Source: Alphaproteobacteria bacterium (GTDB lineage: Bacteria > Pseudomonadota > Alphaproteobacteria > UBA828 > JAPUJA01). Taken from it: a stretch of DNA of 64,000 bases. A model generated the notes under the pieces. It ran no database searches. It was not told where the DNA came from and was given only the letters and a program-made list of their open reading frames with translations. The stretch covers positions 335,063-399,062 of the forward strand of contig CBDAPE010000019.1 of NCBI GenBank assembly GCA_965198325.1, written 5' to 3'. Below are positions 3,720 through 16,647 of the stretch, one piece after another (position 1 is the stretch's first letter; every line of letters begins with the position of its first letter). The translations under genes and the position numbers were made by a program.

Positions 3720-3816
3720 TGGCGGAAGAGAGTGGGAGTCGAACCCACCCGGGACGCGAGCCGCGCCCCACACCGGGTTTGAAGTCCGGGCGCCCCACCG
3801 GGGACGAGCCTCTTCC
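3720..3816 (-). tRNA. selC: tRNA-Sec (selenocysteine tRNA, anticodon TCA)
   Basis: The 97-nt reverse complement has the defining Sec structure: 8-bp acceptor stem (GGAAGAGG/CTCTCTTCC), 6-bp D-stem with 4-nt loop (CGTCCC-CGGT-GGGGCG), anticodon loop CTTCAAA identical to E. coli selC, long variable arm, GGTTCGACTCC T-arm, CCA. It lies immediately downstream of selB. Confidence 0.9.
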
Positions 3817-3847: not shown

Positions 3848-5776
3848 TCAAGCGACGGGGCGGCCGGGCCGGTCAGAGCCTCGATTTCGCAGCCGCCGCA
3901 CCGTATCGAGACGCTCGGTCAAACCGGTACGGTCGAAATACTCCAGCACTTCGATCGCGAGATTTCGACCGATCCCCGCCCGGTCGCGATAGGCGGCGAC
4001 GGTGAAGCGGCGATCCGGGGAGTCCATTGCGAGCGCTTCGGCGGCCGCCGCCAGATCGCGCACATGGTCCACTGAAAGAAACCGGTTTTCGGAGACTCGC
4101 GCGACCAGACCCAGGCTCTCCGCGCGTTGCAGGAACCGCCGGAGGGCCGCAGTCTCGAGGTCGAGGCTTTCGGCCAGTTCGTGGACCACCGGCGCCGCGG
4201 CGCTCGATGCAAGTTGCGGTCGGACGCGCCGCCACAGCGCCTGGTCCGGCCCAGGCAACGTCGGCTTGAAATCGGCCAGGGCGAGCCGGGCACCCATCCG
4301 CCGGATTTTGCCCGTTTCCGCCAAGGCGTCGACGACGCCCTCGATCAGGGGAATCGGCACACGCCGCTCGAGCCTGCGCCGCAAGCGGTCGACCTCGATG
4401 CCGGTTCGTTCCGGCTGTTCCTCGTGGCCACGCCCCAGCGCAGCGAGGATGGCTACCTTCAGGGCACGGCCGTGAGCAGGCGACAGGCCGTAGCGAGACG
4501 CCGCCCGATCGACGTGCACCATATCGGCCGCCCGCCACAGCGCCGCGGCGGCGGCTACCGTCAGGTTGCGCGCGCAGGCGAACCGGTTGAGATCGACCCC
4601 GTCCGGTGTCGCGACGAGCAGCGCGGCGAGAGCATCGGGGGCGCTATCGGCCGCCATGCCGGAAAGTGCCGCGAGACGGGCGTGTTTGGCCCGCCCGCGC
4701 GCGGGCGCGAACGGGTCGATGACCCGGCCGCCGCCGACGGTGTGCCGGGAGGTGCCGTCCCTGAGCACGAAGCGGTCGCCGAACAGTGCACCGATGGGGC
4801 GGTCAAGGACGAGTTGGGCGAGCCCCGTCTCTCCGGGCTCGATCGACTCGCGATCCAGCGGATGAACCCGGGCGGTCACGTGGGCCGCGCCGAGGTAGAG
4901 ATGCACGAGCGTTCTCGACCGGAGCACCCGGCGTTCTCCACCCAGCACCCGGATACATCCGTCGAGGCGCGGCGTCGGCGCGTGAGCGGGTTCGGCCACC
5001 AACCAGTCGCCACGGCCAATGTCCGTCCGGCTCAAGCCGCGCCCCGCAATATTCAGCGCACAGCGCTCGCCGGCTCTCGCCTCGGCCGCCTCCCGGTTGT
5101 TGGCGTGAATCCCCCGCACACGAACCGCAGCGCCCATCGGTGAAAGAACCAGGCTATCGCCAATCTGCGCCGTTCCCGACCAGACTGCGCCGGTTACGAC
5201 CAGCCCTGCGCCATCCAGCGTGAAGCAGCGATCGATCGCGAGGCGAAAATTGCCGCAGGGCGCTCTTGGCGCCAGCGCCGCCGCCTCGCGCTCCAGCCAC
5301 GCCCGAAGGGCCGCGATGCCTTCGCCCTGCGGGCTCGCGACGGGAAACACGGGCGCGCCGGCCAGCGGGCCCTCCCCCAGCAACGCAACCAGGGCGCCCA
5401 TCACCTTGACCCGCCTCGTCTCATCGATGCGGTCGATCTTGGTGAGTGCGACCGCTCCGCCCTCGATCCCGAGCAGCTCGAGAATCGCCAGATGCTCCGC
5501 TGTCTGCGGCATCGGCCCCTCGTCGGCGGCAATCACGAGCAGCGCCCGGTCGATTGCTCCGACCCCGGCCAGCATGGTGGCTATGAAGCGCTCGTGACCC
5601 GGCACGTCGACGAACCCCAGCATGTCCCCGCCCGCCGTCGGCTGGTAGGCAAAGCCCAGGTCGATCGACAGGCCCCGGCGCTTCTCCTCCGCCAGACGGT
5701 CCGTCTCGATCCCGGTCAGCGCGCGGACGAGCGCGGTCTTGCCGTGATCCACGTGCCCTGCCGTCGCGCCGATCAT
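3848..5776 (-). CDS. selB: selenocysteine-specific translation elongation factor SelB
   Basis: 642 aa. N-terminal GTPase (AGHVDHGKTAL, DVPGHERF, TKID), then EF-Tu-like domains and C-terminal winged-helix region. Its start overlaps the selA stop (ATGA). Confidence 0.9.
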   Translation of the reverse strand: MIGATAGHVDHGKTALVRALTGIETDRLAEEKRRGLSIDLGFAYQPTAGGDMLGFVDVPGHERFIATMLAGVGAIDRALLVIAADEGPMPQTAEHLAILELLGIEGGAVALTKIDRIDETRRVKVMGALVALLGEGPLAGAPVFPVASPQGEGIAALRAWLEREAAALAPRAPCGNFRLAIDRCFTLDGAGLVVTGAVWSGTAQIGDSLVLSPMGAAVRVRGIHANNREAAEARAGERCALNIAGRGLSRTDIGRGDWLVAEPAHAPTPRLDGCIRVLGGERRVLRSRTLVHLYLGAAHVTARVHPLDRESIEPGETGLAQLVLDRPIGALFGDRFVLRDGTSRHTVGGGRVIDPFAPARGRAKHARLAALSGMAADSAPDALAALLVATPDGVDLNRFACARNLTVAAAAALWRAADMVHVDRAASRYGLSPAHGRALKVAILAALGRGHEEQPERTGIEVDRLRRRLERRVPIPLIEGVVDALAETGKIRRMGARLALADFKPTLPGPDQALWRRVRPQLASSAAAPVVHELAESLDLETAALRRFLQRAESLGLVARVSENRFLSVDHVRDLAAAAEALAMDSPDRRFTVAAYRDRAGIGRNLAIEVLEYFDRTGLTERLDTVRRLRNRGSDRPGRPVA

Positions 5777-7190
5777 CGTGAGCCTGCGGGCTGCTCCAGG
5801 GCATCGAGCTGGCCGGCCAGCGCGTCCTCGTCGTCGAGGCCCCTGAGGTCGAACCGAAGGGCGCCGTCCTCGATCCGCCCGATCACCGGAACCGGCAAGG
5901 CGCGGAAGGCCGCCGCCAGCCGCTCGAGCGCCTTGCCGCTCCCCCGCCTGCCGGTGTTCGGGCTCAGCGCGAGCGCCACGCTTTCCAACCGGCTCGCGGG
6001 CTGGGCGCCGCTGCCCACTTGGCAGTCGGTTGCGATGATCTCGACCGCCACCCCCTCGAGCCTGGCGGCGAGCAGGGGCCCCAGGCGGCGAGCTACGGCC
6101 TCGATCTCGGACAACGGCCGGGTCATCTGGCGCAAGGCCGGCAGGCGCGCGGCCAGCCGGTCCGGATCGTCGTATAGCCGCAGCACGGCGTCGAGCGCGG
6201 CGAGGCTCAGCTTGTCCAGCCTGAGTGCCCGCTTCATGGGATTGCGGCGGAGTCTGGCGATCAGGTCCCCGCGCCCTACGATCAATCCTGCCTGGGGGCC
6301 GCCCAGCAGCTTGTCGCCGGAAAAGCTCACCAGATCGGCGCCGTGGGAAACCGCCTCGCCCGCCGTGGGTTCATGGGGCAGGCCGTAGCGCGCGAGGTCC
6401 ACGAACGCGCCGCTGCCGAGATCCACGATCAGCAGCAGCCCGTGATCGTGCGCCAGTGCTGCGAGCGACCCTTCGGGCACGGCTGCGGTAAAGCCCCGCA
6501 TCTGGAAATTGCTGAGGTGAACCCGCAGGATCAAGGCCGTGCGCGGCCCGATCGCATCGGCATAACCGGAACCATGCGTGCGGTTGGTGGTGCCACCTCG
6601 ATAAGCCGGCAGCCCGCGCGCGCCATGATGTCGGGAAGGCGGAACGAGCCGCCGATCTCGATCAGTTCGCCCCGCGAAACGATGACCTCCTTGCCCTTCG
6701 CAAGGCTGTTGAGCGCGAGCAGCAGGGCTGCTGCGTTGTTGTTCACCGCGGTCGCGGCCTCGGCCCCGGAAAACCGGCAAAGCCGCTCCTCGATATGGTC
6801 CTCGCGCTCTCCCCGCCGTCCTTTGGCGAGATCGTATTCGAGCGTCGAAGGGCCACGCGCCACCGCCGCGATTGCCGCGATCGCCTCTTCGGGCAGGCTC
6901 GCGCGGCCCAGATTAGTATGGATCAGCGTGCCCGTCAGGTTGAGCACGGGCCGCAGACTCGGCTGGCCGCGCGCGGCAAGGCAGGCGCCGACCCGTTCCC
7001 CGATCGCGCCTTCGCTGGCCTCGGGTGGATCGGCGGCCGCGTCCGCCGCCACCGTATCCCGCCAGTCGGACAGCACCGCGCGCACCGCCATGGTCGTGGC
7101 GTCGCGGCCGTGCGCCTCGATCAGCGCCTGGACGACCGGAAACCGCAGCACCCGGTCGACCGAGGGTATCGCTCGGTGCAATGAACTCAT
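5773..7190 (-). pseudogene. selA: L-seryl-tRNA(Sec) selenium transferase SelA, frame broken by a 1-nt deletion
   Basis: N-terminal part is ORF 6531..7190 (...AGCRLIEV|APPTARM*). C-terminal part is ORF 5773..6780 read one frame back (...GTTNRTHGSGYADAIGPRTALILRVHLSNFQMRGF...). Restoring one G in the GG run at about 6593-6596 (gaggtgGcacc to gaggtgGGcacc) gives the conserved SelA segment RLIEVGTTNRTH in one ~470-aa frame. Confidence 0.8.
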
Positions 7191-7474
7191 GACGCCTGCC
7201 GCCTTACCCCACTCCCGCGTGAACCAATGAAGCTAGCGCAAAATCCGATACTGTGGAAACAACCCGAACCTGCAAACCCGCGCCGGCCGCGGGCGCGACC
7301 AATGGTTATGGCCCGCGGGCAACCGCAGGGTGGGGCCAGCTCCGGGCGTGTGTCATGATCTTCGTTCAGCACCAGCGTGCGAACGGGGCGCAAGGGATAT
7401 AGGAATTTGTCCCTGCCCTCGCTCGCTCACGGAGGGGCCGGGCGCCCATTCGAGAACCAGGGGGAGACGCTGCG

Positions 7475-8464
7475 ATGTCAAAGGCACAGGTGATCCACGA
7501 ACTCGGCCCGCCCGAGGCCATGCGGTGGGAAGAGTGGGCGGTACCCGATCCGGCGACCGGCGAAGTCCGCTTGAGGCACACGGCGGTGGGCGTGAACTTC
7601 GCCGACACCTACCACCGGGGGGGCGTCTCCCATCCGGTGCGGGTGCCGGCCTGCCCGGTGGTGGTCGGGTTTGAAGGGGTCGGGGTCGTCGAGGGCGTCG
7701 GCGACGGTGTGAGCTAATTCAAGCCCGGCGATCGCGTTGCCTATGGCATCCCGCCGCTGGGCAGCTATTCCGAGGTGCGGAACTATCCCGCCGACAAGCT
7801 TCTCCATCTGCCCGACGGCCTTGATGAACGGGTTGTGGCCGCGCTCCTCATGAAGGGGATGACGGCCCATTACCTGTTACACCGGACCTACAAGGTGCAG
7901 CCCGGCGATACCATCCTGGTGCACGCCGCGGCGGGCGGCATGGGACTCATCCTGTGTCAATGGGCCAAGGCGCTCGGCGCCACGATCGTCGGCACGGTCA
8001 GCACCGAGGAAAAGGCCGAGGTCGCCCGCGCAGCGGGATGCGACTATCCGGTCGTGCGCTCCAGGGAGGATTTTGTCGCCAAGGTTCGTGAAGTCACCAA
8101 CGGTGAAGGAGCGGCCGTCGTCTATGAGGCGATTGGCAAGGACACCCTGCAACAATCGCTCGACAGCCTGCGGCTGATGGGCGTCTGTGCGGCCTATGGC
8201 CATGTCTCGGGCCCGCCCGATCCGGTCGACGTGATCCAGGACCTGGGTCGCCACGGCTCACTCTACATTACCCGGCCCGCGATCACGCACTACGTGGCCA
8301 AGCGGTCCGACCTTGAATGGACGGCCCGGGATCTCTTCAAGGCCATGGACGATGGAATTCTGGACGCGAACATCAATTACGAGTACCCGCTAAAGGACGC
8401 CGTCAAAGCCCATCAGGCACTCGAAAGCGGCACGACACTCGGCGCGACGGTTCTCATCCCCTGA
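7475..8464 (+). pseudogene. qor: quinone oxidoreductase (Qor-like, MDR/zinc-ADH superfamily) interrupted by an in-frame TAA
   Basis: ORFs 7475..7717 and 7775..8464 share a frame and together form one Qor-like protein (...GVVEGVGDGVS * FKPGDRVAYG...AAGGMGLILCQWAKALGA...). The TAA at 7715-7717 sits where Qor proteins have a sense codon before the conserved FKPGDRV. Good RBS GGGGGAGA before the ATG at 7475. Confidence 0.75.
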
Positions 8465-13231: not shown

Positions 13232-14062
13232 TCACGAGCCGCCGTCGGGGGTCTTCTGGAAGCGCGCCTCCCGCCATTCGAGCGCGGCTTTCAGGCCGTC
13301 CTTCTGCGCGATCGCGGTAAACGCGCGGCGAAGCGCGCTGCCCTCGCCCTCGATCAGCAGATCGGTGTCGAGCGCCATCTGAAGGGCCTTGTCCATGCCC
13401 ATGATATCGAGGCTGCGGTTGATCGCCCGCTTGGTGCTCTGCACCACGGCGGGGTCCATCACCGCCATGTCCCGCGCCATCGCAAGCGCGGCGTCGACAT
13501 GCCCGCCCTCGGGCACCACCCGGTTGATCAGGCCGATGGCAAGCGCGCGCTCGGCGGGGATCTTGTCGTTCCCCGTGAGCAGCAATTCCTTGGCCTGCTT
13601 GGGCCCGGTCACCCAGGGCAGGATCATGACGACGATGCCCGCGCCGAAGCGCAATTCGGGCTCGCCGAACATCGAACCTTCCGCCGCGATCGTGATGTCG
13701 CAGGCGAGTGCCAGTTCGCAGCCGCCCGCAAGCGCGAAGCCGTGAACCGCGGCGATGGTCGGCTTGGGACAGCGCCAGAAGCGCATGATGGTATCGAAAT
13801 CGAGCTGCAGCGCGGGCTGCCATTCGGCGACCCCCTCCGGCAGATCCGCAAGCTCCGCCTTCAGGTCGAAGCCTGAGGAAAACGCCTTGCCCGCGCCGGT
13901 CAGCACCAGCGCGCGAATCCCGTTTTCCGTCTCGACCTGATCCAGCACCTGATTCAGCTCGCCCAGCAATTCGGCATTCATGGCATTAAGCCGTTCGGGC
14001 CGATTGAGCGTCAAGAGGCCGACGGGCCCGCGGGTCTCGAACGAGACGGTTTCCCACGCCAT
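13232..14062 (-). CDS. enoyl-CoA hydratase/isomerase (crotonase) family protein
   Basis: Start trimmed to MAWETVSFETRGPVGLLTLNRPERLNAM (crotonase signature). GAGKAFSSGFDL oxyanion-hole motif. Confidence 0.85.
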   Translation of the reverse strand: MAWETVSFETRGPVGLLTLNRPERLNAMNAELLGELNQVLDQVETENGIRALVLTGAGKAFSSGFDLKAELADLPEGVAEWQPALQLDFDTIMRFWRCPKPTIAAVHGFALAGGCELALACDITIAAEGSMFGEPELRFGAGIVVMILPWVTGPKQAKELLLTGNDKIPAERALAIGLINRVVPEGGHVDAALAMARDMAVMDPAVVQSTKRAINRSLDIMGMDKALQMALDTDLLIEGEGSALRRAFTAIAQKDGLKAALEWREARFQKTPDGGS

Positions 14063-14201
14063 CGCTGCTTGCTCCATCAATGATCTGCAACAGCCCGCCG
14101 GGGCCCGTCCAGGGTACGAGAGGGTGTTGCCGGGATTGTATCGCCGGTGCCGGGGCATTAAGAAGAACAACCGGCGGCTTAATGGATACGGGTCTCGGCC
14201 C

Positions 14202-14825
14202 ATGCGCAAGCCAAAAACCTTGAAGGCGCTCAAAGAACTGGGGCGGGTCCGTCTCTCGCGGAGCTTCTTCATGCGGAATTTCCTCTACAGCGAGGTGAGC
14301 AATTTCTACGGCATCCCGAACCTCCCCGACGATCCGGACCTGGCCATCGCGGCGGGGCGCGCGCTATGCGAGAACATCCTCCAGCCCCTGCACGACACCC
14401 TCGGCGCGGTGGAGATCCGCTCGGCCTTCCGCTCGGCGCGAGTCAACCGCTACTGCAATACCCACGGCGGCAATTGCGACAAGAACGACAAGAATTACGC
14501 CCGTCACATCTGGGACCGGCGCGATGCCGACGGGGCGATGGGCGCCGTCGCCTCGATCGTCCTGCCCTGGTACCTGCCGCGTTATGAGAAAACCGGCGAC
14601 TGGCAGCCGCTCGCCTGGTGGCTGTTCGATACCCTGCCCTGTAGCGAGCTGCAGTTCTTTCCCAAGCTCGCCGCCTTCAACGTCGGCTGGCATGAGAATC
14701 CGAAGCGCATCATCCGGAGCTACGCTCCGCCCAGGGGCATTCTGACCCGGCCCGGCATGGCCAACTACGAGGGTAGCCACGCAAAGCACTACCGGGGGTT
14801 TCCCCGGCTGCGTCGCGCGCGCTGA
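14202..14825 (+). CDS. hypothetical protein (207 aa), basic and Trp/His-rich; weak resemblance to Zn D,D-peptidase-like (peptidase M15) folds
   Basis: ATG at 14202 inside ORF 13980..14825. Sequence FMRNFLYSEVSNFYGIPNLPDDPDL...HGGNCDKNDKNYARHIWDRRDADGAMG. I recognise no confident family. Confidence 0.4.
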   Translation: MRKPKTLKALKELGRVRLSRSFFMRNFLYSEVSNFYGIPNLPDDPDLAIAAGRALCENILQPLHDTLGAVEIRSAFRSARVNRYCNTHGGNCDKNDKNYARHIWDRRDADGAMGAVASIVLPWYLPRYEKTGDWQPLAWWLFDTLPCSELQFFPKLAAFNVGWHENPKRIIRSYAPPRGILTRPGMANYEGSHAKHYRGFPRLRRAR

Positions 14826-14867: not shown

Positions 14868-16040
14868 ATGCCCCTCCTCGCCCTCGTTGCGGCCGTCCTG
14901 TGGAATCTGTTCATCGGCCTGTTCTATTGCTGGAGCGTCTTCATCGTGCCGCTGGAAGAGGCGCTCGACGTTTCACGTGCGAGCGTGAGCGCGGTCTTTT
15001 CGGTGGGCATCGCGTGCTACGCCGGCGGCATGTTCCTCTCGCCCCACCTGCTCGCCCGCGTCCCCCTGCCCCGGCTTGCCGCAGCGCTCGGACTCGGCGC
15101 AGCGCTCGGGCTCCTGATCGCCGGACTGGGGGCCAGCCTCGGCGCGCTGATCGCGGGCTTCGGCATTGTCTTCGGGCTGACGGCGGGCGCAGGCTATGCG
15201 CTGGCGCTGCAGGCAGCGAGCGGCGAGCTGCCGGTCAGGCGCAGCTTCGCCATCAGCATCACGGTTACCGCGTTCGCTACGGCGGCGCTGCTCTGGCCCA
15301 AGCCGCTCAGCCTGCTGATCGCCGCTCTGGGGCCGTTTACGACCCTCATCCTCTACGCCGGGGCGATGGCCGGAATCGGGCTCGTCATCGCACTCCTGCT
15401 TCGGCTCTCGGGCGCGCGGGCGCCGGCCGCGGACGACGCCGAGGCGACACGGATCTTGCACAACTTCCTGACCGACCGGCCGCGCGTCTTCGTGCTGATC
15501 TGGCTCAACTTCGTCTTCCTGGCGATGGGTGGCTTGACGGCGTTGAGCCACGCCGCCGGCATCGCCGGGGCCTTCGGCGTTCCCCCGGATCAGGTCTATT
15601 TCGCCCCGATGGTGACGAGCGTCGGTTATGTCGCCGCCTGCCTGTGCGCGGGCCCCATGACCGACTGGCTCACGGGCCGGCGCGTGCTGATGGGCCTCTC
15701 GGGCGTCATGATGGCGGCTCTGCTGGCGCTGTTCCTGGCCCCCTCGGCCTGGCTCAGCCTGCTTGTCCTGGCCCTCGTGGGTGCCAGCTTCGGCGCGACG
15801 GCTGCGGTTTATCCGGTCACCGTCGCGAGCTATTACAGCATCTCGGAAATGGGCCGCATCTACGGCCGGATTACGCTCGCCTACGGCACCGGCGGCATCG
15901 CCGCGCCCCTCATGGCCGGTGCACTCTACGACTGGGAAGGCGGTTACCACTGGTCGCTGCTGATCGCGGCCGGGTTCGCCGCCGCCGGAATCGCTGCAAG
16001 TTCGGCGCTGCCGCAGCCGGCCCGAACAACCGCCGGATGA
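14868..16040 (+). CDS. MFS transporter
   Basis: 390 aa, Ala/Leu/Gly-rich with about 12 TM segments. Its 3' end lies inside the 85-bp direct repeat. Confidence 0.8.
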   Translation: MPLLALVAAVLWNLFIGLFYCWSVFIVPLEEALDVSRASVSAVFSVGIACYAGGMFLSPHLLARVPLPRLAAALGLGAALGLLIAGLGASLGALIAGFGIVFGLTAGAGYALALQAASGELPVRRSFAISITVTAFATAALLWPKPLSLLIAALGPFTTLILYAGAMAGIGLVIALLLRLSGARAPAADDAEATRILHNFLTDRPRVFVLIWLNFVFLAMGGLTALSHAAGIAGAFGVPPDQVYFAPMVTSVGYVAACLCAGPMTDWLTGRRVLMGLSGVMMAALLALFLAPSAWLSLLVLALVGASFGATAAVYPVTVASYYSISEMGRIYGRITLAYGTGGIAAPLMAGALYDWEGGYHWSLLIAAGFAAAGIAASSALPQPARTTAG

Positions 16041-16054
16041 TTATCTACCCGCTA
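15970..16054. repeat. 85-bp perfect direct repeat, copy 1 (last 71 nt of the MFS CDS plus 14 nt of 3' flank)
   Basis: Identical to 16146..16230: ccgggttcgccgccgccggaatcgctgcaagttcggcgctgccgcagccggcccgaacaaccgccggatgattatctacccgcta. Both copies are followed by an A-run plus GG. Confidence 0.9.
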
Positions 16055-16145
16055 AAAAGGGGGTTGAACCTTTGCCCCGGCGGTTATCCCAAATCACTAC
16101 CCAGATAGTCGACCTGGCTGATTCTGCGCAAAATTCCCTCAGCAC

Positions 16146-16230
16146 CCGGGTTCGCCGCCGCCGGAATCGCTGCAAGTTCGGCGCTGCCGCAGCCGGCCCG
16201 AACAACCGCCGGATGATTATCTACCCGCTA
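16146..16230. repeat. 85-bp perfect direct repeat, copy 2 (non-coding; 91 bp of unique sequence separates the copies)
   Basis: Exact duplicate of 15970..16054 at 176-bp periodicity. The second copy has no upstream start codon in the MFS frame. Confidence 0.9.
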
Positions 16231-16308
16231 TAAAAAAGGCCGCGTTCAAATCGGACGAGTCACCGGATATCCAGGCCTTCGAAGCCGCCCGGGGCCGCCC
16301 GGAGCCGC

Positions 16309-16647
16309 CTAAACGGTGAAGGATTCGCCGCAGCCGCAGCGACTTGATTCGTTCGGATTGGAGAACCGAAAGCCCGGCTCGAGCTTGTCCTCGACATAGT
16401 CGAGCTCGGTACCGAGCAGATACATGGTCGCCAAAGGATCGACGATCACGGTCACGCCCTTGTCCTCGACGATCTCGTCGTGAGGCAGCACCTCGACGAC
16501 GTAATCCATGGTGTATTGCAGGCCCGAGCAACCGGCGGTTTTCACACCGATCTTCAGCCCGATCGCGGGTTTCTCACCCTCGTGCCTCTCGAGCAAGAGC
16601 TTGACCCGGTCGGCGGCCGCGTCGGTCAGGCTGATCAAATTCGGCAT
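16309..16647 (-). CDS. erpA: A-type Fe-S cluster carrier (ErpA/IscA/SufA family)
   Basis: 112 aa with the three conserved Cys (C...CGCGESF at the C-terminus). Last gene of the suf operon. Confidence 0.9.
   Translation of the reverse strand: MPNLISLTDAAADRVKLLLERHEGEKPAIGLKIGVKTAGCSGLQYTMDYVVEVLPHDEIVEDKGVTVIVDPLATMYLLGTELDYVEDKLEPGFRFSNPNESSRCGCGESFTV

Follow-up and report, generated by a model that had tools for sequence, protein, structure and literature searches.

Gene content of the window

The window (the whole 64,000-nucleotide stretch of DNA that was analyzed) was examined by Pfam scans of 44 open reading frames (ORFs), which cover most of the 64 kb. All content identified in this way is core chromosome. 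It comprises tRNA-SeC, selB, selA, a TetR regulator, an enoyl-CoA hydratase, and two MFS genes, as well as sufBCDS-U-T-erpA, purB/purC/purL, rpsD, a leuA-like gene, cysS, gltX, nadE, DAHP synthase, aminoacyl-tRNA synthetases, and others. A few ORFs of the window are without a Pfam match. Domains of integrases, recombinases, transposases, phages, or conjugation systems were found in none of the 44 ORFs scanned. The same holds for reverse transcriptase and for Ku/LigD, the latter result referring to these 64 kb of the genome only.

A selenocysteine-incorporation cluster, in which tRNA-SeC adjoins selB and selA, lies at positions 3720–3816 and 3848–7190. The organism would therefore use selenoproteins, provided that selA is in fact intact. 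In the window, selA, the gene for selenocysteine synthase (5773–7190, minus strand), is split into two frames, one for the N-terminal part (6531–7190) and one for the C-terminal part (5773–6780), with the break at about position 6592. The break reads GTGGCACCACCAACCGCACGCAT and is one G short of the codons for EVGTTNRTH, within a run of G. Either the gene is truly frameshifted or the split is a homopolymer error, which would mark the window as a long-read assembly with residual indels. A zinc-type alcohol dehydrogenase is found at 7330–8464 (plus strand), where the ORF at 7775–8464 holds the C-terminal ADH_zinc_N domain only. Lacking the N-terminal GroES-like part, it may represent another frameshift or a truncated gene.

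The structure described here lies between an MFS gene and erpA, with the suf genes and the enoyl-CoA hydratase as further neighbors. The coordinates of the locus are collected in Table 1, together with the sibling contigs used for comparison (L numbers denote the loci that were fetched). Directly upstream of the MFS gene and co-oriented with it is a gene for a hypothetical protein of ∼207–210 amino acids without a Pfam match (window 13980–14825, plus strand), which is kept in all related lineages (L003, 5648–6271; L006, 2321–2953; L010, 2354–2986). This protein may be a functional partner of the transporter. It is called at a length of only 109 amino acids in the sibling contig_60, probably as the result of a 1-nt indel. 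On the other side of the locus, a 10-nt tandem repeat (AGCCGCCCGG, 2.7 copies) occupies positions 16283–16309 directly after the erpA stop, and a SNP falls within it in L003.

Table 1. Coordinates of features at the MFS–erpA locus of the window, and sibling contigs from the same population
Feature	Position or accession	Strand	Description or basis
MFS transporter gene, OFA (oxalate/formate antiporter-like) family	14868–16040	+	390 aa, intact; PF07690; JGI names of homologues
Repeat copy 1 (A1)	15970–16054	+	last 71 nt of MFS CDS including TGA (16038–16040), plus 14 nt downstream
TACCCGCTA, 9-mer TACCCRCTA just 3′ of the MFS stop, right edge of the repeat	16046–16054, again 16222–16230	+	stop-region alignment
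Spacer B, 91 nt	16055–16145		no gene, RNA family match, or significant fold; source not found
Repeat copy 2 (A2), non-coding	16146–16230	+	native downstream sequence TAAAAAAGGCCGCG... comes next, as in single-copy siblings
Native MFS–erpA intergenic sequence, also in siblings	16231–16308		sibling comparison
erpA-like Fe-S cluster insertion protein gene	16309–16647	−	112 aa, last of suf operon, convergent with MFS; PF01521 (Fe-S_biosyn)
Sibling	ENA ERZ25072526 contig_60		loci L001/L004/L008
Sibling	ENA ERZ25072076 ctg218952_3x_l		loci L003/L007
Sibling	Logan ERR13605531		loci L002, L009

An exact direct repeat at the 3′ end of the MFS gene

Comparison of the window with itself identified an exact direct repeat of 85 nt (A1 and A2), the copies of which start 176 nt apart and enclose the 91-nt spacer B. 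An earlier note on this DNA had described a perfect repeat of this size, spacer, and spacing, and all of its coordinates were reproduced. The content that it had assigned to the first copy also agrees with the MFS coding sequence at 14868–16040. No leftward extension of the repeat is possible, and the two copies diverge on their right side at 16055/16231 (A versus T). Only ∼1e-39 exact 85-mer pairs are expected by chance in 64 kb, in line with the claim that the repeat is not fortuitous. It is also the sole repeat of at least 28 nt with >81% identity in the whole window.

The 3′ end of the MFS gene and its stop codon sit inside A1. The second copy is indeed non-coding, as had been proposed: its frame is closed by a TAG at 16106–16108, and no ATG, GTG, or TTG occurs between this codon and A2.

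Sibling assemblies carry a single copy

Look-ups with exact proteins recovered three independent assemblies from the same population. Their identity to the window is 99.7–99.98% across as much as 9.3 kb, and they encode an identical MFS protein. At the MFS–erpA site, all three siblings possess one repeat copy (ending in ...CCCGCTA), which is followed immediately by the sequence found after A2 in the window, so that the junction reads ...GATGATTATCTACCCGCTA/TAAAAAAGGCCGCG... and B is missing. Relative to the siblings, the window carries exactly 176 bp extra at this site, which can be described as A + B or equally as B + A. SNPs between the window and the siblings are sparse (∼1 per kb) and show no clustering around the insertion, indicating that no recombination tract was imported.

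The structure is present in one assembly only. Look-ups of two small ORFs that cross B, made for further carriers of the insertion, gave no record, and those of erpA and NifU returned the same sibling contigs again without a new carrier.

Related lineages and the ancestral state

A distance of 25 nt separates the MFS and erpA stops in lineages whose MFS is 70–72% identical to that of the window (L006, L010–L014, and P0004 on its JGI contig), and B is missing from these lineages. The MFS–erpA intergenic region thus has been expanded in this species, where it measures 93 nt. In L005, the closest other lineage, whose MFS is 75% identical, the gene is followed by a hairpin terminator and then by a 110-nt remnant of erpA, and B is absent. 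This remnant (ENA ERZ27250962 k141_299886, positions 2455–2564) corresponds to the 3′ part of erpA and is 86% identical to the window. The suf operon of L005 is replaced by unrelated genes (Meth_synt_2-like, Ribonuc_L-PSP, and PTE). The rearranged locus of L005 indicates that the same intergenic site served as a rearrangement breakpoint elsewhere too, and, together with the 93 versus 25 nt of intergenic sequence, the erpA remnant points to a site with a history of rearrangement.

No match to B was detected by blastn in any of the 14 fetched loci. A search of the GTDB species representatives with the MFS protein returned no related locus, i.e. the lineage has no representative detectable by that method.

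Because siblings and outgroups are all single-copy, one copy is the ancestral state, and the 176-bp insertion is derived and very recent. The view of the earlier note that an insertion-type scar lies between MFS and erpA is borne out in this respect, the window having gained exactly 176 bp. The comparison of orthologous loci that the note had suggested as a way to find an inserted element turned out negative, with none in four contigs of the same population and eight contigs of related lineages.

When the stop-codon regions of the window, L001, L005, L006, and L010–L014 were aligned, the short non-coding sequence TACCCRCTA, followed by an A-rich run, was seen immediately 3′ of the MFS stop in all related lineages, the MFS itself being only 70–75% identical. 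The motif is found at 2388–2405 in L005, at 4171–4188 in L006, just after the MFS stop in L010–L014, and twice in the window (Table 1). The right edge of the repeat coincides exactly with the end of this motif. TACCCRCTA lies between the two convergent genes and may belong to a bidirectional terminator or serve as a binding site.

Spacer B is an orphan sequence

Spacer B has a G+C content of 53% (window, 64%) and is not of low complexity. Smith–Waterman alignment of B to the window gave no similarity beyond that of shuffled controls, and blastn found no match in plasmids, phages, or Escherichia coli genomes. Genome and metagenome contigs were scanned for exact occurrences of 26- and 27-mers of B. 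The right piece was not found in the GTDB species representatives (596 Gb of genomes), nor were the left and right pieces found in the JGI metagenome contigs. An exact scan of the IMG/VR viral contigs with the left, middle, and right pieces was likewise negative. B is therefore an orphan sequence.

At E ≤ 10, Rfam contains no family matching B, and the only match elsewhere was a chance snoRNA. Folding of B gave z-scores of +0.2 and +0.4 on the two strands, so that B has no notable fold, and the scores for both strands of B and of A, each folded separately, ranged from +0.2 to +1.4. A scan of B for promoters and terminators yielded neither. A search of 5.8 billion proteins gave no relative for the +1 frame, the more protein-like of the two frames that run open through B.

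The left end of B (AAAAGGGGGTTGAACCTTTGCCCC) consists of an A-run and a weak hairpin, which fails the terminator scan. It occupies the position at which L005 has a true bidirectional terminator. The sequence AAAAGG, with which B starts, recurs in the initial part of the native downstream sequence (TAAAAAAGG) and possibly represents microhomology at the left junction. The right junction of B shows no microhomology.

We also compared B with adapter and barcode flanks of ONT and PacBio libraries (AAGGTTAA...CAGCACCT, the rapid-barcoding flanks, and the SMRTbell adapter). The resemblances are short and partial, and neither the lengths nor the interior fit. Contamination by a common adapter or barcode would appear in genome and metagenome collections, and the pieces of B have zero exact matches in these very large public collections, which argues indirectly against such a sequence.

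Origin of the insertion

Our preferred reading, which we hold tentatively, is that the 176 bp arose in a one-step illegitimate event, in which a staggered break or a template switch led to the duplication of 85 bp and the capture of 91 bp of filler. In the first of two possible routes, a double-strand break with nicks ∼85 nt apart would have left overhangs that were filled in, and a 91-bp DNA fragment would then have been captured between the ends by end-joining. In the second route, the replication machinery would have switched templates, such that the nascent strand copied A, then 91 nt from another template, and then returned to the start of A. By either route, 85 bp would be duplicated de novo, with foreign filler placed between the copies. 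The comparisons show how the insertion is built, that it is derived and recent, and that B is an orphan; the repair or replication mechanism is what we infer.

A de novo duplication from the same chromosome would explain the perfect identity of the copies. The tail of the MFS gene diverges fast between lineages, yet all 85 nt agree between the copies (100% identity), which fits a de novo duplication better than an att copy that was carried independently. A one-step event would also account for the absence of element genes and for the recent age, and it is plausible that convergent gene ends are fragile sites. In Sinorhizobium meliloti, NHEJ was demonstrated to capture heterologous DNA at chromosomal breaks, where the events left small deletions or insertions at the junctions, not 85-bp duplications (PMC6379672).

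Several observations weigh against this reading. "Filler" is a label for B, the donor of which was found in none of the collections searched, and this counts against break repair. We know of little documentation of a duplication-plus-filler of such size in bacteria. The support from a single assembly and the frameshift in selA weigh against a real polymorphism. Moreover, a repeat that comprises a gene 3′ end with its stop and has its edge at a conserved 9-mer is an equally expected product of site-specific integration.

It is rather unlikely, although a serious alternative, that the 176 bp stem from one aberrant or chimeric long read, or from a faulty read join, that survived polishing, the true genome being single-copy. 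The insertion is seen in one assembly, and three of three siblings from the same population are single-copy. Leftover single-base indels, such as the G missing from selA in the window, give the window and the siblings the look of long-read assemblies, and the siblings carry 1-nt indels that break ORFs. Such indels suggest noisy long reads, and in data of this type one read can be enough for a large insertion to persist. The lack of a source for B in any collection searched is also in keeping with an artefact. However, a ligation chimera would require two independent fragments of this locus, co-oriented and sharing an 85-nt overlap, to be joined through a third fragment of 91 nt, which is extremely unlikely in a metagenome. 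Nor does B resemble low-complexity basecaller junk or, as its unmatched 26- and 27-mers indicate, a common adapter or barcode. The repeat is free of mismatches, and a similar structure occurs nowhere else in the 64 kb. Finally, long reads easily span 176 bp, and polishing should remove a minority insertion.

We regard it as unlikely that the insertion is the scar of an integrative element. According to this explanation, an element with the MFS 3′ end in its attP integrated and created attL and attR, and an internal deletion then left 91 bp as a minimal, CIME-like remnant. A variant, which is included in the same low estimate, invokes a circular DNA that carried the MFS segment and integrated Campbell-style by homologous recombination. 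The layout is the classic target-restoring one, the direct repeats consisting of the gene 3′ end, its stop codon, and a further 14 nt. The conserved TACCCRCTA, with which the right edge of the repeat coincides, could be a recognition site, and B combines a lower G+C content (53% versus 64%) with the absence of a relative in the host window.

Against an element scar stands the lack of any integrase, recombinase, or element gene among the scanned ORFs of the window. An occupied site was seen neither in this population nor in at least three related lineages, which is weak evidence in an uncultured lineage that is thinly sampled. A and B are absent from the viral, phage, and plasmid collections: the last 29 nt of A, sought as a possible attP, did not occur in the viral contigs (exact scan), and A had no match in phages and only chance G+C-rich matches (E ≥ 0.2) in plasmids. 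Two rare events would be needed, the second of which, an illegitimate internal deletion, must outcompete the easier precise loss via the 85-bp repeats. In addition, the att copy would have to match 85 nt of a species-specific, fast-evolving gene tail. Of the earlier interpretation as an attL/attR remnant, the insertion scar at a gene 3′ end is retained, whereas an element gene, an occupied site, or an attP-like sequence did not come to light. It is very improbable that TACCCRCTA at the convergent MFS/erpA terminator is the attB of an uncharacterised integrative element and that the 91 nt are its fused outermost ends, which would then be smaller than any CIME-like remnant described so far.

That the structure is a functional repeat system or a small mobile element (MITE, DGR, CRISPR-like unit, or regulatory RNA in the spacer) is scarcely credible, as the bare presence of a repeat at a gene 3′ end is all that favors such a reading, and the structure is absent from near-identical (99.9%) siblings.

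The individual candidates of this kind were rejected on the following grounds. For a MITE or other transposable element, there are no inverted repeats within or bounding B and no other copy of A or B in the window or the 14 loci, and a target-site duplication of 85 bp is far beyond the known short ones of 2–15 bp. In the case of a DGR, the copies are identical and so lack adenine-specific differences, no reverse transcriptase is encoded by the ORFs scanned, and copy 2 is absent in the siblings. A CRISPR-like repeat-spacer unit would here consist of two repeats only. With respect to a regulatory RNA, B has no Rfam match, fold z-scores of +0.2 to +0.4, and no promoter or terminator signal. The 91 nt that separate the copies are foreign to the single-copy siblings and to the rest of the window, and this rules out a plain tandem duplication, which the earlier note had also considered; TRF reports no array.

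Consequences of the insertion

The reading frame, the stop codon, and the protein of the MFS gene are unchanged by the insertion, the protein being identical to that of the siblings. Reading on the minus strand, the sequence downstream of erpA is unchanged for 78 nt plus a T-run. The effect of the insertion is to place the convergent genes 176 bp further apart and to replace the sequence after the MFS stop beyond 14 nt. On this basis, the insertion appears to be functionally silent and neutral, and the second copy would be dead DNA.

Two identical copies of 85 nt allow easy reversion by recombination or slippage, so that the insertion should be unstable. Easy reversion would in turn explain its rarity in the population. 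Taken together, the insertion is most likely a recent neutral scar of recombination or repair, and possibly an assembly error. The event belongs to known kinds of structural variation, and there is no evidence of a system or function.

If real, the insertion is a neutral structural polymorphism that sets one uncultured strain apart from its siblings and might serve as a strain marker. It would also provide a natural example of duplication plus filler at a convergent gene end, an event seldom recorded in bacteria. As an artefact, it would call for caution regarding large single-read insertions that persist in long-read metagenome assemblies. The locus would be moderately interesting only if spacer B represented the ends of an unknown integrative element, and otherwise it matters little.

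Comparison with known systems

The prophages e14 and phage 21 carry a replacement 3′ end of icd. CIMEs are cis-mobilizable elements, decayed remnants of ICEs or IMEs in which attL and attR are retained where the target gene ends on its 3′ side (PMC5704250). As in CIMEs and in e14 and phage 21, direct repeats with a gene 3′ end and its stop flank foreign DNA at the MFS–erpA locus, and the target gene is intact. The known CIMEs are kilobases long and were recognized through related intact elements at the same site. In contrast, only 91 nt lie between the repeats of the window, no related element or integrase is known, and the site is empty in every relative examined. The repeats are also unusually long and perfect for a target other than a tRNA gene.

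The arrangement resembles a simple tandem duplication in its two identical head-to-tail copies close together, from which it differs in that the copies are separated by 91 nt that do not derive from the ancestral locus.

The insertion is comparable to FoSTeS/MMBIR and to homology-facilitated illegitimate recombination in transformation, in that a local duplication and an inserted sequence could have arisen in one step, possibly with AAAAGG as microhomology. Most documented cases of template-switch and homology-facilitated mechanisms come from eukaryotes, E. coli amplification systems, or naturally competent bacteria. Unlike in FoSTeS/MMBIR-type events with a templated insertion, the template for the 91 nt was not found here.

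Whereas the experimental junctions of NHEJ capture contain small deletions or additions, the inserted sequence of the window is flanked by an 85-bp duplication (PMC6379672). In both cases, short unrelated DNA resides at a core chromosomal site, without homology or mobile-element machinery (Dupuy et al., Nucleic Acids Res 2018/2019, PMC6379672).
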